Sequence record: PP526765
From: Escherichia phage HK3
Reading direction: 5' to 3' (one strand)
DNA length: 64,000 nucleotides
Under the pieces are notes generated by a model, which saw only the letters and a list, made by a program, of their open reading frames with translations, was not told the DNA's origin and did no database searches. Position numbers and translations under genes: made by a program. Of this stretch, positions 3,398 through 35,922 are shown in pieces. Position 1 is the stretch's first letter; every line of letters begins with the position of its first letter.

Positions 3398-5179
3398 ATG
3401 ACTAAATCACTTTATGCAGTACCAGCAGGTTTAAACGCGGATGCTTACAAGTCTGGCCATATTTATCAGTATCCTAGTGCAACAGAGTACCTAATGTTCA
3501 ACCTGACACCACGTAGTGATAAATGGTTTAACAGCCCTTTAGCAATTGACGGTGTAGTTGCTTTTGGTATTCAACGTTTTGTTAAAGATTACTTGATAGA
3601 CCACTGGAACACCACCTTCTTTGAACGTGACAAAAAAGAAGCAATTGATGAAATCTTAGAAGTCATGAACGGTGTTCTGGGTAAAGATGCTATTGGTCGA
3701 GAACATTGGGAAGCACTTCACGACTTAGGCTATCTACCAGTTGAAGTATACGCTGTAGAAGAAGGCACAGTTGTTCCTATGCGTGTACCAATGATTGTCT
3801 TCCAGAACACTGTTTCAGGTTTCCATTGGGTAGCGGGGTATCTGGAAGATGCTTTCTCTGCTGAGATTTGGAAGGCTTGCACCATTGCAACTATTGCATT
3901 GCACTACAAACGTATCTGTAAGAAGTGGGCTGACCTTACTTGTGACAATGACTTGCATTTGCCTTATCAGTGCCATGACTTTGCTATGCGTGGTATGTCT
4001 GGCTTTACTGATGACGCATTTAACGCTGTAGGCCACTTAACCAGCTTTAAAGGTACTGACAGTTTCCCTACTGTGTATACGGCTAAACGAATCTATGGAC
4101 AGTCCTACCCAATCTCTGATATTGGCAGCTCTGTACCAGCCACTGAACACTCTGTAATGTGTGCAAACATTGCTTGGGAAGGTGGTAATGAGTTGATTGA
4201 AGAAGAAAGACGCTTTAAAGGTGAGTTACAAACCTTCCGTCGTTTCTTAACAGAAACTTACCCAACTGGTATTGCAAGTGTTGTTTCAGACACTTATAAT
4301 TTCTGGAGAACTGTATCAGAAATCTTACCAGCACTTCGCAAAGAGATTATGGAACGTGATGGAAAACTGGTAATTCGTCCTGACTCTGGCGACCCTGTAC
4401 ATATTGTCACAGGCTATAAAGCAATCCACTTAGAGTGCGCTAAAAAAGCTTATTACGAACACCTAAGCAAGCTGGAAGCAAGCGACACAATGTTGAATGC
4501 TGTTCTGAACATGAAGCTTGAAAACATCAGTTATGGTATTGCTGGATGGCTACTGTCAGAAGGCTACGAGATGGTTGTTGACAGAGAAGACTTTGAAGTT
4601 GCTGATACAGTGATGTTGAAAAATGCTTATATGGTTGGCTCTGCAAACGTTGTAACACGTCCTGTAGCAGAGATTGATGGGGCTATTAAGACCCTGTATA
4701 ACATCTTTGGAGGGACTATCAACTCTAAAGGTTTTAAGGTACTAGATGAACACATTGGCCTTATCTATGGCGACTCTATCACGTTGGAACGTGCAAACGA
4801 AATCTTGAAGCGTTTGTATGAAATGGGTTTTGCAAGCTCTAACGTAGTGTTTGGTGTAGGTTCTTACACTTACCAGTACATGACTCGTGACACTTTTGCA
4901 TTTGCTGTCAAAGCAACTCTTGCAAGCATTGGCGGTAAAGAGATTATGCTTGCAAAAGACCCTAAAACAGATAGTGGTGTTAAGAAGTCTGCTTTTGGTG
5001 GTGTAGCGCCTATGTGGGATGGTGATAAGCTGAAAGCTGTAGATGGCTATGGATTCCAGAGCTTTGCAGATGCACTTGAACATCCAGCTTGTGCTTTACG
5101 TTTAGTCTTTAGCGACTCTGAGCAGTTCGGTTACACAACTCTTGGTGATATTCGAAACAATATTGACAAGCAGCTTTAA
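3398..5179 (+). CDS. nadV: nicotinamide phosphoribosyltransferase-like protein (NAMPT/NadV family; possibly Namat type)
   Basis: NAMPT signature stretches SVPATEHS, VVSDTYNFW, IRPDSGDP; track ORF starts at TTG 3380, first ATG at 3398. Confidence 0.85.
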   Translation: MTKSLYAVPAGLNADAYKSGHIYQYPSATEYLMFNLTPRSDKWFNSPLAIDGVVAFGIQRFVKDYLIDHWNTTFFERDKKEAIDEILEVMNGVLGKDAIGREHWEALHDLGYLPVEVYAVEEGTVVPMRVPMIVFQNTVSGFHWVAGYLEDAFSAEIWKACTIATIALHYKRICKKWADLTCDNDLHLPYQCHDFAMRGMSGFTDDAFNAVGHLTSFKGTDSFPTVYTAKRIYGQSYPISDIGSSVPATEHSVMCANIAWEGGNELIEEERRFKGELQTFRRFLTETYPTGIASVVSDTYNFWRTVSEILPALRKEIMERDGKLVIRPDSGDPVHIVTGYKAIHLECAKKAYYEHLSKLEASDTMLNAVLNMKLENISYGIAGWLLSEGYEMVVDREDFEVADTVMLKNAYMVGSANVVTRPVAEIDGAIKTLYNIFGGTINSKGFKVLDEHIGLIYGDSITLERANEILKRLYEMGFASSNVVFGVGSYTYQYMTRDTFAFAVKATLASIGGKEIMLAKDPKTDSGVKKSAFGGVAPMWDGDKLKAVDGYGFQSFADALEHPACALRLVFSDSEQFGYTTLGDIRNNIDKQL

Positions 5180-5232: not shown

Positions 5233-5577
5233 ATGGACAACCTTTCCATATGGTTTAACAAGAAACCTGTACAACCGAAATACTTGCAAGTTGCCTATAC
5301 AGATATCCTTGAAGTTCTCGGTAAAGAAAAGTTTGAAAAGTTTTGTGAAGGCATCTACAATCATCACTGCCAATTTGCTACAAAAGAAGGTATGTTTGTC
5401 ATAGAACAGTTCTTTGGCAGAGACCCAGATGACTACGAAGAGATTAGCTTTGTAATGAAATATATGATAGAGTATATTGAAAATCGTGGATTCGAAGTTA
5501 ATCCTGAATTTTATGAGCACGAGGGTGTACCTTTAGCAAAAGGTTTTGATGGAATACTTGTTAGCTGGACTTGGTGA
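5233..5577 (+). CDS. hypothetical protein (114 aa)
   Basis: ORF track. Confidence 0.5.
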   Translation: MDNLSIWFNKKPVQPKYLQVAYTDILEVLGKEKFEKFCEGIYNHHCQFATKEGMFVIEQFFGRDPDDYEEISFVMKYMIEYIENRGFEVNPEFYEHEGVPLAKGFDGILVSWTW

Positions 5578-5918
5578 AAATTATGAAAATCAAAGAAATG
5601 AACATCAATATTGTCTTAGAAGAACGATGGGAGAACATCAAGAAGCCTGAAAATGGTCATAAGTTCCTCAACAAAATCTTAGTAGCAGCTAAAGAAGAAC
5701 TGACTGGCAAGGTTGCAGCAGCAATCACAATAAAGGTCTGTGTAAAAGGTCTTCCAGACAATCACCAATTTGCACTTGACGAGTTTAAAGAAAGCTTCTA
5801 CAATCCAAACAAACAGATGCTTGAAAGTAACTTTGCAGTATCTACAAGCATCGTTCATGACAGAAGCTTTATCCTTTACAAGAATATGAGAGGTGAGTCA
5901 TGCAAGCATATTGGATAG
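5571..5918 (+). CDS. hypothetical protein (115 aa)
   Basis: ORF track; overlaps previous stop (coupled). Confidence 0.5.
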   Translation: MVKIMKIKEMNINIVLEERWENIKKPENGHKFLNKILVAAKEELTGKVAAAITIKVCVKGLPDNHQFALDEFKESFYNPNKQMLESNFAVSTSIVHDRSFILYKNMRGESCKHIG

Positions 5919-29338: not shown

Positions 29339-30754
29339 ATGAGCAAGTTATTTAAACATGCGCACCTTCATGCAGGTCGAACTGAAAATGGTGCTGTAAA
29401 CCATACTTCATCAATGTCTGCTCTGGTAGACTTCTACAAAGCCGCTGGTTCAAGCCGTAGCAATGTAGAAATCTTACCAGACCTGTTCTACAAAGCTTTG
29501 CGTGAGGATGTTGATGTTGCAGTTCGTATTTTACTGCATATGCGAGATGTACGAGAAGGTATGGGCGAGCGTAAAGCTTTCCGAACTGTTTTGCTTCAAG
29601 CGATTGAAGATAAGGTTTTAGAACCTACACAGGTTCTTCGCATTATGGATAAGATTGCAGAACTTGGTCGTTTTGATGACTTCAAAATCTTTGTAGGTAC
29701 TCGTTTTGAGACAGACGCCTTCAAACATTTAGAAGCAGCATTACTAGACCCTGCAACAGCAGGTTTAGCAGCTAAGTGGTTGCCACGAGTAAAACCACGC
29801 CACAAACAGTTTGTAAAACGTTTCTGCAAGTTTGCAAACTTAAGTGAGAAGGAGTATCGCACACTGTTGTCTGCACTATCTGATACGGTTGAGCAAAAAA
29901 TCTCTGCTAATGAGTTTGGTAAGATTGACTACAGCAAGATTCCTTCACTAGCTGCTGCACGTTACCAAAAACTCTTTAACCGTAAAGATGGTGAACGTTA
30001 CAAAGCTTACATCGAGTCGCTCTCAAAGGGTGAGGCTAAGATTAATGCTGGTGCTGTTTACCCATACGATGTGATTAAATCTATTAAGTATGGTAATGCA
30101 GATGTTGCTAATGAGCAGTGGAAAGCACTTCCAAACTGGATGGCAGAAGGTGAAAACATCTTGTGTATGACTGATGTTTCAAGCTCAATGTCTTGGGTGA
30201 ATCTTGGTTCAATCACTGCCCTTGATATTGGTGTATCACTTGCTTTGTATGTAGCAGAACGCAATACTGGTTGCTTTAAAGATGAGTTAATGGTTTACTC
30301 AACAAACCCTCACTTCATTGAACTGAGTGGTGATTTACGAAACCGTCATCGTCAGGTGATGCGTCACGTTGAATATGGCTCAACTAACTTACAAGCAGCT
30401 TTTGACCGTATTCTTGAAATAGGTAAGAGAAACAACTTGACTCAGAAAGATATGCCAAGTAAGCTTATTATCTTCTCTGATATGGAGTTTAATCAGGTTG
30501 ATGGTGCAAATGGTCATACAAACTTTGAAGCAATTCAGAGTAAGTACAAAAAAGCCGGATACGAAATGCCACAACTAGTATTCTGGTACTTAGCAAACCG
30601 TAATGGTACTTGCGAAGTATCTGTTAAGGATAATGGTGTAGCAATGGTATCAGGGTTCTCTCCAGCCACTTTAAAAGCTCTACTTGGTGGTGAGAAGTTT
30701 GACCCAATCAGCGTAATGCTCAAAGCAGTAATGATTGACCGTTATATCTGGTAA
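29339..30754 (+). CDS. vWA-domain protein with MIDAS motif; candidate Ro60/TROVE-like (Rsr-like) RNA-binding protein
   Basis: C-terminal vWA signature ILCMTDVSSSMS (DxSxS); about 470 aa with helical N-terminal region; sits directly upstream of the tRNA/ncRNA cluster; TROVE assignment is inference. Confidence 0.4.
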   Translation: MSKLFKHAHLHAGRTENGAVNHTSSMSALVDFYKAAGSSRSNVEILPDLFYKALREDVDVAVRILLHMRDVREGMGERKAFRTVLLQAIEDKVLEPTQVLRIMDKIAELGRFDDFKIFVGTRFETDAFKHLEAALLDPATAGLAAKWLPRVKPRHKQFVKRFCKFANLSEKEYRTLLSALSDTVEQKISANEFGKIDYSKIPSLAAARYQKLFNRKDGERYKAYIESLSKGEAKINAGAVYPYDVIKSIKYGNADVANEQWKALPNWMAEGENILCMTDVSSSMSWVNLGSITALDIGVSLALYVAERNTGCFKDELMVYSTNPHFIELSGDLRNRHRQVMRHVEYGSTNLQAAFDRILEIGKRNNLTQKDMPSKLIIFSDMEFNQVDGANGHTNFEAIQSKYKKAGYEMPQLVFWYLANRNGTCEVSVKDNGVAMVSGFSPATLKALLGGEKFDPISVMLKAVMIDRYIW

Positions 30755-30919: not shown

Positions 30920-30996
30920 CTCTGTTTAGCTCAGCTTGGTAGAGCGTTCCGTTTGGGGCGGTAAGGCCGGAGGTTCAAGTCCTCCAACAGAGACCA
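30920..30996 (+). tRNA. tRNA-Pro (anticodon UGG)
   Basis: 7-bp acceptor CTCTGTT/AACAGAG, D-stem GCTC/GAGC, T-arm GGAGG-TTCAAGT-CCTCC, encoded CCA. Confidence 0.6.
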
Positions 30997-31003
30997 AATT
31001 AAT

Positions 31004-31081
31004 GTTCCAGTAGACAAAATGGTATAGTCACCACTCTTTCAAAGTGGATATTTGAGGGTTCAAATCCCTTCTGGAACGCCA
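31004..31081 (+). tRNA. tRNA-Glu (anticodon UUC)
   Basis: perfect acceptor GTTCCAG/CTGGAAC, anticodon stem CCACT/AGTGG, loop CTTTCAA, T-loop TTCAAAT, CCA. Confidence 0.6.
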
Positions 31082-31087
31082 GTTTTG

Positions 31088-31162
31088 ACAGAAGACCAAT
31101 TACAGCAAACTTAATCTTATTCATCTGAAGGTAAATCGGACAAAGAAGAGATTTGGTCTGGT
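31088..31162 (+). ncRNA. structured spacer element a (conserved 5' CAGAAGACCAATTACAGCAA, 3' TTGGTCTGG)
   Basis: 7-bp long-range stem AGACCAA/TTGGTCT; one of four sibling elements. Confidence 0.45.
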
Positions 31163-31172
31163 CATTAAGAAT

Positions 31173-31249
31173 TGCGGGTATAGAGAAAGGGCGTCTCACA
31201 TGTCTCATTAGCATGGTATCGGCAGGTTCGACTCCTGCACCCGCCTCCA
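31173..31249 (+). tRNA. tRNA with CAU anticodon (elongator Met or Ile-lysidine type)
   Basis: loop CTCATTA, D-stem GAGA/TCTC, T-arm GCAGG-TTCGACT-CCTGC, CCA; mismatch at acceptor pair 1:72. Confidence 0.5.
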
Positions 31250-31255
31250 AATTTA

Positions 31256-31320
31256 CAGAAGACCGTTTACAGCAATATTTATTAAATTTTTAGCGGAAAA
31301 ATTGAAAGATACGGTCTGGT
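31256..31320 (+). ncRNA. structured spacer element b (5' CAGAAGACCGTTTACAGCAA, 3' ACGGTCTGG)
   Basis: stem AGACCGT/ACGGTCT; GT/AC replaces the AA/TT of elements a and c. Confidence 0.45.
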
Positions 31321-31333
31321 AATACTAAACATG

Positions 31334-31410
31334 GTTAGGAAGCACATAAGGTATGTGCGGTCGCCTGTTAAGCGAATGGCACAGGGTTCGAATCCCTGAC
31401 TAACCGCCAA
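31334..31410 (+). tRNA. tRNA-Asn (anticodon GUU)
   Basis: D-stem GCAC/GTGC, loop CTGTTAA, T-arm CAGGG-TTCGAAT-CCCTG, CCA. Confidence 0.55.
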
Positions 31411-31481
31411 ATTTAGGAGAGAAGCGATTGCTCACCGATTTGTAAGGTGCAAGTCCTTAGCCTGAATAGAATAATAAAATG

Positions 31482-31569
31482 TGTCGTTATCCCGTAGATG
31501 GTAGCGGTGGGGACTGTAAATCCCTTGTCATTGAGACTCGGTAGGTTCGACTCCTACACGGCACACCAA
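31482..31569 (+). tRNA. tRNA-Tyr (anticodon GUA), long variable arm
   Basis: acceptor GTGTCGT/ACGGCAC, anticodon stem GGGGA/TCCCT, loop CTGTAAA, 88 nt, T-loop TTCGACT, CCA. Confidence 0.6.
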
Positions 31570-31630
31570 TTTTGAGAGGGCTATTTAGCCCCTCCCTTAA
31601 AGAGTTCTTACGAGTACCCTTTAAAGGAGC

Positions 31631-31704
31631 AGAAGACCAAATACAGCAAGTTACTTAAAATTTCAAGCCAATTCAATTTTGAAAAATTTAAAACTTGGTC
31701 TGGC
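31631..31704 (+). ncRNA. structured spacer element c (5' CAGAAGACCAAATACAGCAA, 3' TTGGTCTGG)
   Basis: stem AGACCAA/TTGGTCT. Confidence 0.45.
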
Positions 31705-31717
31705 TCAACAAATTTAC

Positions 31718-31848
31718 AGAAGACCGTTTACAGCAAAACTTAAACAATCTATTTCTCGGTAAAGAAAAGGTGAAGGTTCGATTCCTTCACTCGGCAGATG
31801 TCGAGTTGGTGTAATGGTAGCACTTAAGATGATAAACAACGGTCTGGT
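31718..31848 (+). ncRNA. structured element d with circularly permuted tRNA-like module (candidate YrlA-like Y RNA)
   Basis: order: 5' stem strand AGACCGT (31722) - T-arm GAAGG-TTCGATT-CCTTC (31773-31789) - acceptor-like hairpin ACTCGGC-AGAT-GTCGAGT (31790-31807) - D-arm GTGT-AATGGTA-GCAC (31810-31824) - 3' stem strand ACGGTCT (31840-31846). Confidence 0.5.
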
Positions 31849-31849
31849 A

Positions 31850-31985
31850 ATTATCTTTGCAGTAGCTTATGTGGCTAATTATATCGTCCCATGAGTGCCG
31901 ATGAATTTCCTTAGCATGATTCTAGATTAGCTTAATAGGAAATGACTCTACAGACCCTTTAGCAAGGTCTGCGTAGGTTACTGCA
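31850..31985 (+). ncRNA. element enclosed by a perfect 16-bp inverted repeat (AATTATCTTTGCAGTA ... TACTGCAAAGATAATT) around 104 nt
   Basis: arms at 31850-31865 and 31970-31985; interior has further hairpins (AGACC...GGTCT); no ORF. Confidence 0.5.
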
Positions 31986-31999
31986 AAGATAATTTAATA

Positions 32000-32075
32000 G
32001 AAGTGTAGCAGAATGGTGATGCGGCAGACTTTTAATCTGATAGGTGATGGGTTCGAATCCCTCCACTTCTACCAA
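32000..32075 (+). tRNA. tRNA-Lys (anticodon UUU)
   Basis: perfect acceptor AGAAGTG/CACTTCT, loop CTTTTAA, T-loop TTCGAAT, CCA; T-stem only 3 clean pairs. Confidence 0.5.
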
Positions 32076-32079
32076 TATG

Positions 32080-32156
32080 GTTCAGTCGCAGATAAGGTAA
32101 TGCAGGGGTCTCATAAGCCCTATGAATGTGGGTTCGATTCCCATCTGAGCCTCCAA
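32080..32156 (+). tRNA. initiator-like tRNA-fMet (anticodon CAU)
   Basis: anticodon stem-loop GGGCTCATAACCC with three G:C pairs closing the loop; T-arm GTGGG-TTCGATT-CCCAT; CCA. Confidence 0.55.
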
Positions 32157-32158
32157 TG

Positions 32159-32234
32159 CTGTGAAAGCACATATGGATGTGCATTCGGCTGATAACCGAA
32201 AGGAAGAAGGTTCGAATCCTTCTCACAGTACCAA
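32159..32234 (+). tRNA. tRNA-Ile (anticodon GAU)
   Basis: D-stem GCAC/GTGC, anticodon stem TTCGG/CCGAA, loop CTGATAA, T-arm GAAGG-TTCGAAT-CCTTC, CCA. Confidence 0.65.
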
Positions 32235-32249
32235 TTTCAATAAAGTTGT

Positions 32250-32278
32250 TGACATTGAGATGTGACCACTTTATAGTA
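32250..32278 (+). promoter_or_regulatory. internal promoter TTGACA-N17-TATAGT inside the tRNA cluster
   Basis: read directly. Confidence 0.55.
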
Positions 32279-32481
32279 ACCTTAGTTTTCGTTGCGTAGC
32301 GTCTATTTTGCAAATTTAAAATAAATGCAAACGACAATGTTTTTCTGGCAGTAGCTTGATAGGCTAAACACCAGTGAGGTCTTCCAATCCCTCATCAAAG
32401 AATTTGGCGTACTAGCCCACGGTATGATTAATAAGGTGGGCATCTTTAAGGGTTTTTTAAGAGAGTCTTTAAAGATTAATG

Positions 32482-32558
32482 CACCCTTAGTTCAACTGGA
32501 CAGAACAAATGACTTCTAATCATTAGGTTACAGGTTCGAATCCTGTAGGGTGTGCCAA
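32482..32558 (+). tRNA. tRNA-Arg (anticodon UCU)
   Basis: D-stem GTTC/GAAC, anticodon stem AATGA/TCATT, loop CTTCTAA, T-arm ACAGG-TTCGAAT-CCTGT, CCA. Confidence 0.65.
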
Positions 32559-32700
32559 ATAGTTAGCAGATTGCTTAGACGACCTTATCGGGTCTCCGTG
32601 TAGGGAGGTGGTCTGTATCTCATGTTTTCCAGAACATGTAAATAATCTGAGAAGGGGCTTTACAGTGTTGAGATAATACGGTAAGCTTCGAATTATAGTA

Positions 32701-32783
32701 TGGGACGATGTTAAGACTCTAAGGCATGAGCAACGGCTTCCAACACCGTTTCAAAGGGATTCAACTCCTCCGTCCCATGCCAA
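32701..32783 (+). tRNA. atypical tRNA-like gene (possible anticodon CCA, Trp); irregular D and T arms
   Basis: perfect 7-bp acceptor ATGGGAC/GTCCCAT plus G-CCA, but T-stem has only 3 clean pairs and the D-region is 26 nt. Confidence 0.35.
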
Positions 32784-32796
32784 AGTCTTATTAGGG

Positions 32797-32886
32797 GTAG
32801 GTAGCGGCTAATGGTAGCCAAACTGTCTTGAAAACAGTTGCCACTGTAGAGATACGGTGAGGGTTCGACTCCTTTACTTACCGCCT
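32797..32886 (+). tRNA. tRNA-Ser (anticodon UGA), long variable arm
   Basis: anticodon stem ACTGT/ACAGT, loop CTTGAAA, 20-nt variable arm, T-loop TTCGACT; CCA not fully encoded. Confidence 0.55.
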
Positions 32887-33040
32887 AATAAGATTTAAAG
32901 CCAAGCTTCATTCGGATGTTGCTTTGGTATCCCTCGTGTATTGTCGTACACACTGATAAAGCACCTAGTAGGTGTCACGGAGAAGAGATAATATCAAGCT
33001 CTCCAAAGGTTCTAGTCACCGGATTAAACAAGACTATGCA

Positions 33041-33063
33041 AAGACCTGTTTAGGTCTTTTTAG
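33041..33063 (+). terminator. short hairpin AAGACC-TGTTTA-GGTCTT followed by TTTTT inside the tRNA cluster
   Basis: read directly; may instead be a processing signal. Confidence 0.35.
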
Positions 33064-33141
33064 AGGGCTTCTAAGGTTATTACAGCTTGTTGTGGAACCT
33101 TGTTGCTTAGGTTCTTAGAAGTTCTCTAAAAAGATTTAATG

Positions 33142-33218
33142 CACCTATAGCCCAACTGGTAGAGGCAGCAGACTTAGAATCTGCTCAGTGTGAGTTCGAA
33201 TCTCTCTAGGTGTACCAA
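33142..33218 (+). tRNA. tRNA with anticodon UAG (Leu by anticodon; short variable arm)
   Basis: 6-bp anticodon stem AGCAGA/TCTGCT, loop CTTAGAA, T-loop TTCGAAT, CCA; 77 nt. Confidence 0.45.
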
Positions 33219-33225
33219 ATTAATG

Positions 33226-33301
33226 CAGGTGTAGCAAAATGGTTATGCGGCTGACTCTTAATCAGTAAGACGATGGTTTCAATTCCCTCCACCTGTACCA
33301 G
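33226..33301 (+). tRNA. tRNA-Lys (anticodon CUU)
   Basis: loop CTCTTAA; T-arm paralogous to the Lys-UUU gene; CCA. Confidence 0.45.
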
Positions 33302-33307
33302 ACATTG

Positions 33308-33383
33308 GGGATGTAGTTTACATGGTTAAAACATAAGTTTTGCAAACTTAAGTACAGGGTTCAATTCCCTGCTTCTCCACCAA
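33308..33383 (+). tRNA. tRNA-Ala (anticodon UGC)
   Basis: G3:U70 pair in acceptor stem (Ala identity), D-stem GTTT/AAAC, anticodon stem TAAGT/ACTTA, loop TTTGCAA, CCA. Confidence 0.7.
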
Positions 33384-33389
33384 TTAGTG

Positions 33390-33464
33390 CATCCATAGTT
33401 TAAACGGGAAAATTACAGTCTTCCAAACTGAGGTTGAGGGTTCGATTCCCTCTGGATGCTCCAA
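33390..33464 (+). tRNA. tRNA-Gly (anticodon UCC)
   Basis: perfect acceptor GCATCCA/TGGATGC, loop CTTCCAA, T-arm GAGGG-TTCGATT-CCCTC, CCA. Confidence 0.65.
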
Positions 33465-33470
33465 ATAATG

Positions 33471-33547
33471 CTGCTTTCGTATAATTGGCTATTACACATC
33501 CCTTGTAAGGATGGAAATGCAGGTTCGAGTCCTGTGAGCAGCACCAA
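33471..33547 (+). tRNA. tRNA-Thr (anticodon UGU)
   Basis: anticodon stem CATCC/GGATG, loop CTTGTAA, T-loop TTCGAGT, CCA. Confidence 0.6.
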
Positions 33548-33551
33548 TTCA

Positions 33552-33637
33552 GAGGTCAAGTGAAAGACCGCTGGTGTCAACTGAAGACCGTAACAAATTC
33601 CACGGAGTTGAGTTAGCGGCACAACTTCAGACCTCTT
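33552..33637 (+). ncRNA. structured spacer element closed by AGAGGTC / GACCTCT stem, containing a GAAGACCGT motif
   Basis: 7-bp inverted termini; interior shares GAAGACCGT with elements a-d. Confidence 0.35.
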
Positions 33638-33642
33638 TCATA

Positions 33643-33717
33643 CTCGCTTAGTTTATATGGTAAAACACCACCCTTACAAGATGAAGAAAAAGGTTCAAGT
33701 CCTTTAGTGAGTACCAT
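33643..33717 (+). tRNA. tRNA-Val (anticodon UAC), weak anticodon stem
   Basis: D-stem GTTT/AAAC, loop CTTACAA, perfect T-arm AAAGG-TTCAAGT-CCTTT, CCA. Confidence 0.4.
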
Positions 33718-33718
33718 G

Positions 33719-33796
33719 TTCCAATATCCCAATTGGCAGAGGATGCAAGCTCAAACCTTGTACTAGTGACGGTTCGAATCCGTCTTGGAACACCAA
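33719..33796 (+). tRNA. tRNA with anticodon CAA (Leu by anticodon; short variable arm)
   Basis: perfect acceptor GTTCCAA/TTGGAAC, anticodon stem GCAAG/CTTGT, loop CTCAAAC, T-arm GACGG-TTCGAAT-CCGTC, CCA. Confidence 0.5.
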
Positions 33797-33910
33797 TTTT
33801 GGGAGAGCACTATGAGTGATAAGTCAATAGCAAAAAAGTTTAGAGCGTCATACCTAAACAGACGTAAAAACAAAGATTGTGAAAAACTGTATGGTGTTCT
33901 TGTAGGTAAG

Positions 33911-33986
33911 CAGGATTAGTTCAAATGGATAGAGCAGCAGTCTACGAAGCTGTTAATAGGGGTTCGAATCCCTTATCCTGCGCCAA
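33911..33986 (+). tRNA. tRNA-Arg (anticodon ACG)
   Basis: perfect acceptor GCAGGAT/ATCCTGC, loop CTACGAA, T-loop TTCGAAT, CCA. Confidence 0.65.
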
Positions 33987-34004
33987 TTTTAAGAGGCTAT
34001 TTAG

Positions 34005-34562
34005 ATGAGATATTTGAAGTATGCTTCATGGATTTTCCTAGCTTTGTTAGACCCATTGGCAGCAACCTTAGCAGTTATCTTAGCACCTTTTGTAGTTCCA
34101 TTCTACAGTGAGAAGAAAGGGCACTTACCTTTCGGCTTCAGATGGATGGAGACATATGACAACCCAATTGATGGTGATAAAGGTCATGTTGAACGATGGG
34201 CTAAGATTAGAAAGATTGGTAAGCTTGGTGTCTATATGCAGAGAGTCGGTTGGCTCTGGAGAAACAAAGCTTATAACTTCTCTTACCATGTGTTAGGAAG
34301 AGATGTAAAAGATGTTACTAAGTGGAAAGGTAATATCAACGTAAGCTCTGACCCTGAAGATAATCAGACAGGTTATCTCCTAATGTGGAACAGTAATGCT
34401 TGGGGATTATTCGCTTTTATCCCATCAATTAAAGTCTTTGGTAAACAATTCTACTGGAGAATTTATATTGGGTGGAAACTAAAAAGTGTTGTCCCAGAAG
34501 AAAGAGCATTCTCAAGGGAAAGAGTTATGTTGGCATTCTTTATTCATCCACTGAGAAAGTAA
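34005..34562 (+). CDS. hydrophobic protein encoded inside the tRNA cluster (185 aa)
   Basis: ORF track; AAGAGG Shine-Dalgarno 9 nt upstream; hydrophobic N-terminal helix. Confidence 0.55.
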   Translation: MRYLKYASWIFLALLDPLAATLAVILAPFVVPFYSEKKGHLPFGFRWMETYDNPIDGDKGHVERWAKIRKIGKLGVYMQRVGWLWRNKAYNFSYHVLGRDVKDVTKWKGNINVSSDPEDNQTGYLLMWNSNAWGLFAFIPSIKVFGKQFYWRIYIGWKLKSVVPEERAFSRERVMLAFFIHPLRK

Positions 34563-34570
34563 AGATTTAA

Positions 34571-34646
34571 AGGGGATTAGTTTACAAGGTTAAAACCTCG
34601 GTCTTTGAAATCGAAGAAGTTGGTTCAATTCCAACATCCCCCGCCA
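34571..34646 (+). tRNA. tRNA-Gln (anticodon UUG)
   Basis: D-stem GTTT/AAAC, anticodon stem TCGGT/ATCGA, loop CTTTGAA, perfect T-arm GTTGG-TTCAATT-CCAAC, CCA; A1:C72 mismatch. Confidence 0.6.
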
Positions 34647-34648
34647 AT

Positions 34649-34727
34649 GCTCCATTACTCCAATTGGCAGAGAGGCCAGACTTAAAATCTGTGTTATGTA
34701 TCGGTTCGAATCCGATATGGAGTACCA
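34649..34727 (+). tRNA. tRNA with anticodon UAA (Leu by anticodon; 7-nt variable region)
   Basis: acceptor GCTCCAT/ATGGAGT, loop CTTAAAA, T-arm ATCGG-TTCGAAT-CCGAT, CCA. Confidence 0.45.
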
Positions 34728-34732
34728 AATTT

Positions 34733-34808
34733 AGCGGTATAGCATAACTGGCAATGCAACAGTCTCTGAAGCTGTCTTATTAAGGTTCAAATCCTTATGC
34801 CGCTGCCA
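34733..34808 (+). tRNA. tRNA-Gln (anticodon CUG)
   Basis: D-stem GCAT/ATGC, anticodon stem ACAGT/GCTGT, loop CTCTGAA, T-arm TAAGG-TTCAAAT-CCTTA, CCA. Confidence 0.65.
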
Positions 34809-34839
34809 CTTCTAAGGATTCTTACGAGAGTCCTTAAAT

Positions 34840-34915
34840 GTGGCCTTATCATAAACGGTAATGACCCATGCTGTGAACATGGTCTATACGGGTTCAAATC
34901 CCGTAGGTCACCCCA
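34840..34915 (+). tRNA. tRNA-His (anticodon GUG)
   Basis: D-stem TCAT/ATGA, perfect anticodon stem CCATG/CATGG, loop CTGTGAA, T-arm ACGGG-TTCAAAT-CCCGT, C73, CCA. Confidence 0.65.
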
Positions 34916-34920
34916 ATTTA

Positions 34921-34997
34921 TAGTCCAAGTAGCTTATATGGTTAAAGCGCGTGTCTGAAAAACATGAGAAGAGGGTTCAAATCCCACTGGATTACCA
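34921..34997 (+). tRNA. tRNA-Phe (anticodon GAA)
   Basis: anticodon stem CGTGT/ACATG, loop CTGAAAA, T-loop TTCAAAT; acceptor register uncertain by 1 nt. Confidence 0.5.
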
Positions 34998-35013
34998 ATT
35001 TCAAAGGTGCTTA

Positions 35014-35748
35014 ATGAAAGAGATGACAGAACAAGGTAAGGAGATTTTTAATCTCTTAAAAACTGGTAAAGGGTTTTCTAACCCCCTTATTACTGGTGCA
35101 GCAGTTCTCGGTGGAACCGTAGCTGCCTCTACATCACTTGTAAGCTCTATTAGCTCTGTAACAGACCCTACAATAAAGGATAAACTTATTGCTGCTGGAC
35201 TTACAACAGTTCTGCTTAACAGCTTTACAACGAGTCTGACAAGCACTACAGCAACTACTAAGACCCTAACAGACTATGGTCAAAAATCTATTGATGAGTT
35301 TTCATCACGTATGCAGGTAGCAAAGGGATACTCCAATGTTATGGGTGCAGTAGGAGAACAAGTTGGTTGTACACCATTTAGTGGTATTATGGGTGTTGCT
35401 ACAGAGTATGGTCAAAAAGCTATGGATACAATTAACAGCACACTAGATGGCGTTAATGATGTATTAAGCGACTTACAGGATGCTATTGATAAAGGTCTTA
35501 ATACTATTTCTGATTTAGCTAACCAAGCTGTTAGTAAGATTAATGAAGGTATCTCAAAGATTACAGCTTATGCAGATGAAGTTGTGCAGATGATTGAAGA
35601 AGAAGCTGCCCTTATTGCAGAGTACCTTAAAACGAATATCAATGGGTTCTTAGCAGGTATCTTACCAGACTGGTTTGATGATGCTTGTAAAACTGGTGTG
35701 ATTGACACTATTGCAACACCAGAAATGAAGAACGCATTACAGAAATAA
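35014..35748 (+). CDS. Ser/Thr-rich hypothetical protein (about 244 aa)
   Basis: ATG at 35014 after AAAGGTG; track ORF 34951..35748 would overlap the tRNA-Phe gene. Confidence 0.5.
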   Translation: MKEMTEQGKEIFNLLKTGKGFSNPLITGAAVLGGTVAASTSLVSSISSVTDPTIKDKLIAAGLTTVLLNSFTTSLTSTTATTKTLTDYGQKSIDEFSSRMQVAKGYSNVMGAVGEQVGCTPFSGIMGVATEYGQKAMDTINSTLDGVNDVLSDLQDAIDKGLNTISDLANQAVSKINEGISKITAYADEVVQMIEEEAALIAEYLKTNINGFLAGILPDWFDDACKTGVIDTIATPEMKNALQK

Positions 35749-35749
35749 C

Positions 35750-35842
35750 GGAAGATTAACCCTAAAAGGTAAGGGAGCAGTTTGCTAAACTGCCAGTAGC
35801 TGAGAAATCGGTGTACCAGTTCAAGTCTGGTATCTTCCTCCA
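35750..35842 (+). tRNA. tRNA-Ser (anticodon GCU), long variable arm
   Basis: acceptor GGAAGAT/ATCTTCC, perfect anticodon stem GCAGT/ACTGC, loop TTGCTAA, 21-nt variable arm, T-arm ACCAG-TTCAAGT-CTGGT, CCA. Confidence 0.65.
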
Positions 35843-35846
35843 ATTT

Positions 35847-35922
35847 GAATCCGTGACAGAAATGGCTATGTACCTGTCTGCAAAACAGGTTTATAAGGGT
35901 TCGAGTCCCTTCGGATTCTCCA
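35847..35922 (+). tRNA. tRNA-Cys (anticodon GCA)
   Basis: perfect acceptor GAATCCG/CGGATTC, anticodon stem CCTGT/ACAGG, loop CTGCAAA, T-arm AAGGG-TTCGAGT-CCCTT, CCA. Confidence 0.7.

Follow-up and report, generated by a model that had tools for sequence, protein, structure and literature searches.

Three leucine tRNA genes of the short-arm (type I) kind in the tRNA array of Escherichia phage HK3

Bacterial tRNA-Leu is a class II tRNA in textbooks and in the recent primary literature, and the tRNA-Leu genes of Escherichia coli K-12 (leuQPV/T with anticodon CAG, leuU with GAG, leuW with UAG, leuX with CAA, and leuZ with UAA) are of that class. The sole bacterial type I tRNA-Leu described is that of Streptomyces, presented in 2019 as a first (PMC6614811); a type I form is also present in animal mitochondria, where tRNA-Leu(UUR) has a short variable region and takes its identity from A73 and A14, with no long arm (PMC9976931). 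The determinants of E. coli leucyl-tRNA synthetase (LeuRS) are A73, which is crucial, the A15:U48 tertiary pair, G18G19, and A20a, and they exclude both the anticodon and the long arm; arm sequence and folding are uncorrelated with leucylation, and arm-less E. coli tRNA-Leu is active in vitro and in vivo (PMC9976931). Here we analyse three tRNA-Leu genes lacking this arm that lie in an array of 25 tRNA genes (ARAGORN; 30920-35922, plus strand) of Escherichia phage HK3 (PP526765). The window, by which we mean the whole stretch of DNA analysed, is 64,000 nt of a genome of roughly 86 kb, with ~22 kb of that genome outside it. We conclude that the three genes very probably encode phage leucine tRNAs that are functional, belong to the short-arm (type I) kind, and are charged by the host LeuRS. 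The phage group is well known, public records (that of Felix O1 included) carry tRNA-Leu annotations for all three at this locus, and the type I kind is already known from mitochondria and Streptomyces; what appears to be new is its occurrence in enterobacterial phages, its breadth in phage arrays, and its core signature. Full-text literature searches found no description of a phage short-arm tRNA-Leu.

ARAGORN and the Rfam tRNA model RF00005 (Infernal; gathering score 29) give concordant cloverleaves for all three genes, each of which is on the plus strand, includes an encoded CCA, and fits the full Rfam model over positions 1-71. They are tRNA-Leu(UAG) at 33141-33217 (77 nt; Rfam 57.3 bits), tRNA-Leu(CAA) at 33718-33795 (78 nt; 47.0 bits), and tRNA-Leu(UAA) at 34649-34727 (79 nt; 47.5 bits). 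A preliminary description of this DNA had assigned these same anticodons and had reported genes of 77-79 nt with variable regions of 5-7 nt, all of which is borne out; its start at 34649 and its region end at 34727 are exact, but the UAG and CAA genes begin 1 nt further upstream than it had placed them. Read as positions 44-48 with a 5-bp anticodon stem, the variable regions are UCAGU (5 nt) in Leu(UAG), ACUAGU (6 nt) in Leu(CAA), and GUUAUGU (7 nt) in Leu(UAA). Neither ARAGORN nor the Rfam model places a helix in any of them, and none has the arm of more than 10 nt forming a stem-loop that defines class II. The preliminary description was also correct that such a tRNA-Leu is atypical for an enterobacterial cell, in that the seven E. 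coli K-12 tRNA-Leu genes fetched are 85-87 nt long with stem-loop arms.

All three genes have A73, A9, and a C12-G23 pair, and G1.U72 is present in Leu(UAG) and Leu(UAA). The D loop is C13-AACUGGUAGA in Leu(UAG) and C13-AAUUGGCAGA in both Leu(CAA) and Leu(UAA), and the anticodon loops are CUUAGAA (with A37, not G37), CUCAAAC, and CUUAAAA (A36A37A38), respectively. Mismatches are seen at U50.U64, in the T stem of Leu(UAG), and at C27.U43 in Leu(UAA). A pattern in which the Leu D loop, U33-N-A35-R36, and the T loop are spaced as in a short-arm tRNA matches exactly these three genes in the window, with 0 matches expected from 100 shuffles.

The array contains its own internal controls. tRNA-Tyr(GUA) (31481-31568; 88 nt) is type II with an extra-arm stem-loop, as are tRNA-Ser(UGA) (32796-32885; 90 nt), with a 5-bp extra-arm stem, and tRNA-Ser(GCU) (35750-35842; 93 nt), with a 4-bp one; all three are on the plus strand, and their variable arms are 15-21 nt long with stems of 3-5 bp. 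Because the Ser and Tyr tRNAs of the array keep long arms, the short region is specific to Leu and is neither an artefact of the programs nor a phage-wide trait. The HK3 array thus keeps long arms where the synthetase uses them, with Tyr as the control.

A peculiarity of Leu(UAG) lies in its anticodon loop (33173-33179), where A37 follows G36; the E. coli CUN-reading Leu tRNAs all have G37 (UUNAGGU, the m1G37/TrmD context), and the phage Leu(UAG) would not be expected to be a TrmD substrate. Among the matches listed, viral Leu(NAG) genes with G36 have 36 A37 versus 24 G37 in the short-arm form and 16 A37 versus 34 G37 in the long-arm form.

The three genes carry the elements by which E. coli LeuRS recognises its substrates. 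A73, A15, and U48 are present in each, from which an A15:U48 Levitt pair is predicted to form, and each has a Leu-type D arm consisting of a 3-bp stem and the 11-nt loop N13-A14-A15-Y-Y-G18-G19-Y20-A20a-G21-A22, with the loops CAACUGGUAGA and CAAUUGGCAGA. The combination of an N-AA-YY-GG-Y-AGA D loop with A73 and U48 occurs in three of the 25 tRNAs in the window, namely those with Leu anticodons; the identical set is present in all seven E. coli K-12 tRNA-Leu genes fetched, which cover all five isoacceptors, and in the tRNA-Leu of T5. The 3:70 pairs are A-U, U-A, and U-A rather than G.U, and there is no long arm, such that neither the G3:U70 mark for AlaRS nor the arm required for SerRS is found. 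For the close orthologues in Shigella phage Sf14, tRNAscan-SE isotype models rank Leu first in all three cases (67.4, 49.1, and 60.2), although the variable region is never mentioned in that paper (PMC12482277). No aminoacyl-tRNA synthetase domain was found in window open reading frames (ORFs) of at least 450 aa, and a phage-encoded LeuRS was set aside for those ORFs of the 64-kb window of the roughly 86-kb genome. From the complete Leu identity set, the lack of AlaRS and SerRS marks, the Sf14 isotype ranks, and the lack of a synthetase, we infer that leucylation by the host LeuRS is the best reading. The preliminary description had treated the long arm as a LeuRS identity feature, which fails for the E. 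coli enzyme (PMC9976931), and had proposed unusual identity rules, which are unnecessary given that the exact E. coli Leu set is present in these three genes and only these among 25.

The genes are highly conserved. The 2 kb around them shares 94-98% identity with over 200 Felix O1-like phages (Felixounavirus, Ounavirinae), relatives that infect Salmonella, E. coli, Shigella, and Citrobacter. Leu(UAG) is 100% identical in many Felixounavirus genomes, and the orthologues in Moogle (Citrobacter) and Henu12 (Shigella) have 1-4 substitutions; Leu(CAA) has two differences from these orthologues, and Leu(UAA) zero to two from its own. Between the window and Moogle or Henu12, tRNA positions are 94-95% identical and spacers 91-92%. 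A more distant comparison is provided by the Leu(UAG) of Pseudomonas phage phiPsa315 (Otagovirus), which has the same length and 20 differences from the window gene, 20 of 20 of them in stems: eight pairs are changed on both sides and four on one side with pairing kept, and the U50.U64 mismatch of the window gene is a U-A pair in phiPsa315. The D loop, the anticodon loop, the variable region (UCAGU), and the T loop are identical. Across 125 distinct short-arm Leu tRNAs, 97.6% of pairs in 20 stem positions are canonical, as against 59.5% with shuffled partners, and most positions show 4-6 pair types. The confinement of differences to stems, the low divergence relative to spacers, and the class-wide pairing together indicate that the genes are under selection as tRNAs.

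Short-arm tRNA-Leu genes are not restricted to this phage group. In a sensitive BLAST search, Leu(UAG) aligned without gaps through the variable region to annotated tRNA-Leu genes of unrelated phages, and ARAGORN confirmed the loci that were fetched. Short tRNA-Leu genes are present in Mycobacterium phage Roots515 (CAG, GAG, and CAA; 74-76 nt), Streptomyces phage Elmer (two UAG; 76 nt), Cronobacter phage CR3 (CAA and UAG), Pseudomonas phage phiPsa315 (CAA and UAG), Enterococcus phage Bop (UAG, plus an 86-nt UAA), cyanophage P-RSM6 (UAA), and the crAss-like phage cr111_1 (UAG and UAA), and hence in phages of at least seven host groups. The Ser and Tyr tRNAs are long-armed in those of the fetched phage arrays that carry them. 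In vB_OCPT_Bop (4825-5068 and 5301-5648), the long Leu(UAA) of 86 nt stands beside the short Leu(UAG) of 76 nt in one array, and the pair is followed by an annotated tmRNA gene.

Three collection scans were made using patterns with a fixed T loop (GTTCGAATC) and D loop (TGGYAGA); with at least 120 loci each, they describe composition and context rather than frequencies. Among the matches listed from IMG/VR, 128 of 131 with short spacing are tRNA-Leu of 72-79 nt, representing all six Leu anticodons and having a median of 6.5 other tRNAs within 3 kb, and the long-spacing pattern recovers tRNA-Leu of 81-90 nt. Of the 123 matches listed from GTDB species genomes, 122 are tRNA-Leu genes 73-79 nt long; 84 are in Actinomycetota, where 74 of the 84 are solitary chromosomal genes, and 38 are in other phyla, where 3 are solitary and most lie in arrays of at least three tRNAs. 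No Enterobacteriaceae are among the matches listed in the GTDB short-arm scan. The arrayed genes (at least three tRNAs) among the matches listed are from Acidobacteriota, Planctomycetota, Bacteroidota (Chryseobacterium), Myxococcota, Pseudomonadota, and a Lachnospiraceae metagenome-assembled genome (MAG), which suggests that short-arm Leu genes in arrays outside Actinomycetota belong to prophages or to phage contigs binned into MAGs. One further match among those listed is in a MAG of a Nitrososphaerales archaeon. Two Streptomyces matches, on a plasmid or at contig ends (one on a plasmid), are 76-nt tRNAs with a UAA anticodon, a variable region of 7 nt, and an ordinary D arm with a 4-bp stem and 7-nt loop (GCUC-AGUGGCA-GAGC), an architecture that is not Leu-like despite the Leu anticodon. 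Leu(UAG) has no blastn match in 5,426 complete E. coli genomes, and a host-derived or prophage-borne copy in E. coli was rejected on that basis.

We compared the cores of the two classes at positions that the search patterns leave unconstrained, using pattern-selected samples (at least 120 loci each): 111 viral and 91 bacterial short-arm genes on the one hand, and 88 viral long-arm genes together with those of E. coli, T4, and T5 on the other. N13 is C in 94-95% of short-arm genes, viral and bacterial alike, and is G or A in 99% of long-arm genes, those of E. coli, T4, and T5 included. N9 is A in 85% of the short class and G in 100% of the long class, and the 12-23 pair is C-G in 86% and G-C in 99%, respectively, the frequency contrasts between classes at N9 and 12-23 being 0.86-0.90. 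Positions 9, 12-23, and 13 pack against the variable region in the tertiary structure of tRNA. The variable region of the short class has the consensus N-N-A/G46-G/U47-U48 and is 5 nt long in about 88% of members. All three window genes have A9, C12-G23, and C13 and none has the long-class core of G9, G12-C23, and a purine at 13; their variable regions lack a helix and end in U48, and the 6 and 7 nt of two of them are within the range observed for the class.

The stems tell a similar story. Mean stem identity of the window Leu genes is 0.47-0.57 to short-arm genes of other phages and Actinomycetota, 0.37-0.48 to viral long-arm Leu, and 0.32-0.46 to E. coli Leu, the E. coli genes thus being less similar than short-arm ones from unrelated phages and from Actinomycetota. 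When each of 199 viral sequences was matched to its nearest neighbour, the two shared a class in 85% of cases, versus 51% with shuffled labels (maximum 63% in 500 shuffles). The systematic core signature and the same-class neighbours point to a coherent, co-adapted lineage rather than to sporadic deletions, and the comparison argues for short-arm tRNA-Leu being such a lineage, with a remodelled core, that is widespread in phage arrays and native in Actinomycetota. Two recent origins were considered. A deletion derivative of a host tRNA-Leu was rejected, as stem identity to E. coli Leu is 32-56% and the core differs systematically. A remoulding of another array tRNA by anticodon change is not supported, as even the closest non-Leu neighbours, with 60-67% stem identity, do not have the Leu D loop. 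Loss of the arm would then be no recent accident but something inherited with the short-arm lineage.

The anticodons suit the codon usage of the phage. Across 56 non-overlapping window ORFs, the shares of the Leu codons are TTA.28, CTT.26, CTG.15, TTG.13, CTA.11, and CTC.07, and the E. coli shares in the same order are roughly.13,.10,.50,.13,.04, and.10. Set against these approximate host figures, phage use of TTA, CTA, and CTT is two to three times that of the host, and CTG is about three times less used. Sf14 uses TTA and CTA significantly more than Shigella does (PMC12482277), and Leu[TTA] is one of the codons named in the Felix O1 genome paper as aided by phage tRNAs (PMC3185647). Anticodon UAA would decode UUA and UUG, CAA would decode UUG, and UAG, with U34, would decode CUA and CUG and probably also CUU and CUC, such that by standard wobble rules the three together could read all six Leu codons.

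Taken together, we envisage that the three tRNAs are first processed out of the 25-gene array and then leucylated by the LeuRS of the host, be it E. coli, Salmonella, Shigella, or Citrobacter, which would recognise them by their acceptor end and D/T elbow and would not require an extra arm. They would supply the TTA, CTA, and CTT demand of an AT-rich phage (the window is 38.9% G+C), and late translation would become less dependent on the host tRNA-Leu pool.

Several points weigh against this reading. The most direct is that E. coli LeuRS (EcLeuRS) failed to charge the short tRNA-Leu(CAA) of Streptomyces coelicolor in vitro, and that the enzyme is stated to be type II-only (PMC6614811). The variable loop of the Streptomyces tRNA is ACAGC, however, which places C at position 48 and makes A15:U48 impossible, whereas the phage tRNAs have A15 and U48; we suggest that C48, by precluding this pair, plausibly accounts for the rejection. 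In addition, the C-terminal domain of EcLeuRS contacts arm nucleotides 47f-47i, and its leucine-specific domain favours larger arm loops (PMC6614811), so that the phage tRNAs may be charged less efficiently than host tRNA-Leu. EcLeuRS would have to tolerate the A9, C12-G23, and C13 core, as it is presumed here to do, and the U50.U64 mismatch of Leu(UAG) and the C27.U43 mismatch of Leu(UAA) are further blemishes. Finally, the host codon shares behind the phage/host comparison are approximate, host-taxon confounding is possible in the class signatures, and the shortness of tRNAs limits what can be inferred of their lineage.

Why the arm is missing is a separate question, and our answers to it are more tentative. 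We give roughly even chances to inheritance of an old short-arm lineage that is portable because bacterial LeuRS works without the arm. Selection for escape from toxins or nucleases directed at long-armed class II tRNAs is possible but clearly less likely, and protection from Ser mischarging while phage tRNAs drift less likely again. The rival that survives best bears solely on this part of the explanation: arm loss would be adaptive, letting Leu translation continue when long-armed class II tRNAs are inactivated by host toxins or nucleases or by the enzymes of rival phages. Sequence changes are a known means by which phage tRNAs evade tRNA-targeting defences (PMC10264068), and long arms persist in the Ser and Tyr tRNAs that share arrays with short-arm Leu, fitting the need of SerRS for the arm; because SerRS depends on arm size (PMC9976931), Leu is the sole class II tRNA able to lose the arm and yet keep its synthetase. 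Outside Actinomycetota short-arm Leu genes occur almost only in multi-tRNA arrays among the matches listed, and three anticodons that could cover all six codons could make host tRNA-Leu dispensable. Yet neither E. coli nor Salmonella is known to have a toxin directed specifically at the tRNA-Leu arm, nuclease escape was unsupported in the Sf14 study (PMC12482277), T4 and T5 use long-arm Leu, and Enterococcus phage Bop has both forms; the short form is moreover an ordinary chromosomal gene in Actinomycetota, so no defence context is required. We therefore regard adaptive arm loss as a minority explanation. A bolder version, to which we would assign a similarly low likelihood, is that a 'disarmed' lineage spreads horizontally among phages of many phyla, escaping AbiEii/MenT-like enzymes yet still being charged; if this were true, enterobacterial LeuRS would routinely charge a natural type I tRNA-Leu in infected cells, contrary to PMC6614811.

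It is very improbable that the three genes play no role in translation, whether as decaying pseudogenes or as tRNA-like RNAs acting as decoys for host tRNA-targeting enzymes or as ligands of the Ro-like protein encoded upstream. The U.U mismatch in the T stem of Leu(UAG) and the C.U at 27-43 of Leu(UAA) could be read as decay, the Rfam scores (47 bits) are below those of many neighbours, EcLeuRS rejected the Streptomyces short tRNA-Leu (PMC6614811), and a DUF2828/DUF7788 'RNA-binding protein' is encoded directly upstream of the array, as it is in Moogle and Elmer. Decay is at odds, though, with genes that are near-identical in hundreds of Ounavirinae genomes and whose differences from distant orthologues are compensatory and confined to stems, with loops and anticodon unchanged, and with pairing across the class that is 97.6% canonical with 4-6 pair types per position. 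CCA is encoded, the identity set is complete, and the anticodons fit codons enriched in the phage; a decoy would have no need of three different, correct Leu anticodons.

Charging with an amino acid other than leucine, through mischarging or deliberate recoding in tRNAs missing the class II hallmark, was raised by the preliminary description and is more improbable still. The short variable region does remove one typical feature of bacterial tRNA-Leu, the Sf14 orthologue of Leu(UAG) scores 65.7 with the Ile2 model and 63.4 with Lys, near its 67.4 with Leu, and half of the Sf14 tRNAs score best with a non-cognate isotype, phage tRNAs being generally divergent (PMC12482277). But Leu is nonetheless the top isotype for all three Sf14 orthologues (PMC12482277), and the whole E. 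coli Leu set is present in these three tRNAs and in no other of the array. A 3:70 pair that is not G.U excludes AlaRS and the lack of a long arm excludes SerRS (PMC9976931). By the established identity rules, the remaining synthetases for which A73 is acceptable (Ile, Val, Met, Lys, Phe, Tyr, Thr, and Pro) would depend on anticodon bases that are absent here. Leu codons, furthermore, are used at ordinary frequency (1165 of 14786 window codons). An annotation artefact, with wrong boundaries or anticodons and long arms emerging once corrected, has next to no probability: the genes were first assigned by hand and two starts were 1 nt off, but ARAGORN and Rfam concur on the anticodons and the short variable regions, automated folding yields neither different anticodons nor long arms after boundary correction, and the gene lengths leave no space for an arm, with neighbouring tRNAs beginning 2-8 nt from the Leu genes.

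The array adjoins the large terminase gene, with portal, tape measure, baseplate, and tail fibre genes further on. Two conserved ORFs of unknown function interrupt it, both on the plus strand: one at 34005-34562 (DUF7338) and one at 34951-35748 (DUF7217), the latter with a weak match to a GTP-binding phrog. In several relatives a ~420-bp insertion annotated as an HNH endonuclease splits the alignment in the interval of these ORFs. Directly upstream, at 29339-30754 on the plus strand, is a gene for a 471-aa protein with DUF2828 and DUF7788 (and a weak VWA match), which PHROGs describes as 'RNA-binding protein' (phrog_850, 8e-184). An 'RNA-binding protein' gene likewise precedes the tRNA array in Citrobacter phage Moogle, and a 'Ro-like RNA binding protein' gene precedes that of Streptomyces phage Elmer, such that there may be a functional link between Ro/TROVE-like proteins and phage tRNA arrays. 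A permissive Rfam scan of the array gaps found nothing above noise for Y-RNA-like elements, tmRNA, or other RNA families.

Some other members of the array are themselves unusual. The tRNA-Asp(GUC) gene that directly follows tRNA-Tyr in Moogle, Felix O1, and Sf14 is missing from HK3 at 31568-31999, where the junction is a clean absence of a ~77-nt gene, and there is no Asp-like tRNA sequence anywhere in the window. ARAGORN calls both tRNA-Met(CAU) (31173-31249) and tRNA-Tyr (31481-31568), yet both are below the Rfam tRNA gathering score, and tRNA-Ser(UGA) is barely above it at 33 bits. The tRNA-Tyr was flagged 'pseudo' in the Felix O1 paper (PMC3185647), and, with the non-cognate isotype scores of Sf14 (PMC12482277), it is clear that the tRNAs of these phages are divergent in general.

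The conservation of the three tRNAs suggests that they are charged in E. coli and Salmonella; if so, they would be natural type I substrates of the best-studied LeuRS and a ready system in which arm-independent recognition, A15:U48 versus C48, and the 9/12-23/13 core could be studied. The occurrence of short Leu beside long Ser and Tyr across host phyla poses a testable question on the selection of viral tRNA architecture, one that may connect with tRNA-targeting immunity. Annotation pipelines and isotype models need to allow for tRNA-Leu of 74-79 nt in phages, and short-arm Leu tRNAs could also be compact scaffolds for LeuRS-based suppressor engineering.

Of the known systems, the E. coli K-12 tRNA-Leu species share with the phage genes the Leu anticodons, A73, the 3-bp D stem with the 11-nt N-AA-YY-GG-Y-A-G-A loop, and U48 opposite A15, and the E. 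coli UAA species has G1.U72 as in phage Leu(UAA); presumably the two sets are served by the same synthetase. They differ in that the E. coli tRNAs are 85-87 nt long with a 13-15 nt stem-loop arm, as against 77-79 nt and no arm, in having G9, G12-C23, and G/A13 where the phage tRNAs have A9, C12-G23, and C13, and in the G37 of the E. coli CUN species, which is A37 in phage Leu(UAG). The coliphage array genes T4 tRNA-Leu(UAA) and T5 tRNA-Leu(UAG) resemble the window genes in A73 and the Leu-type D loop, but at 87 and 85 nt, respectively, with arms of 13-15 nt, they are class II; the long form in these model phages may be why the short form went unnoticed. Animal mitochondrial tRNA-Leu(UUR), although type I, is by description served by its own mitochondrial LeuRS, has a floppy non-canonical structure, and belongs to another evolutionary context.

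The type I tRNA-Leu(CAA) of Streptomyces coelicolor is similar to the phage short form in its 5-nt variable loop (ACAGC) and, like the type II isoacceptors beside it, is a substrate of a bacterial LeuRS (PMC6614811). It is, however, a chromosomal gene of a high-GC actinomycete with C48, its ScoLeuRS ignores A73, and EcLeuRS does not charge it (PMC6614811), whereas the window genes belong to a phage, have both A15 and U48, and need to function with an enterobacterial LeuRS. The solitary actinobacterial short-arm Leu genes that were fetched have the C13 D loop and up to 75% stem identity to the window Leu(UAG). Engineered arm-less and minimal E. coli tRNA-Leu (Asahara 1993/1998; Tocchini-Valentini 2000; Larkin 2002) are charged if A73 and the D/T-loop contacts are intact (PMC9976931); these are laboratory constructs on type II scaffolds, and the phage tRNAs look like their natural counterparts.

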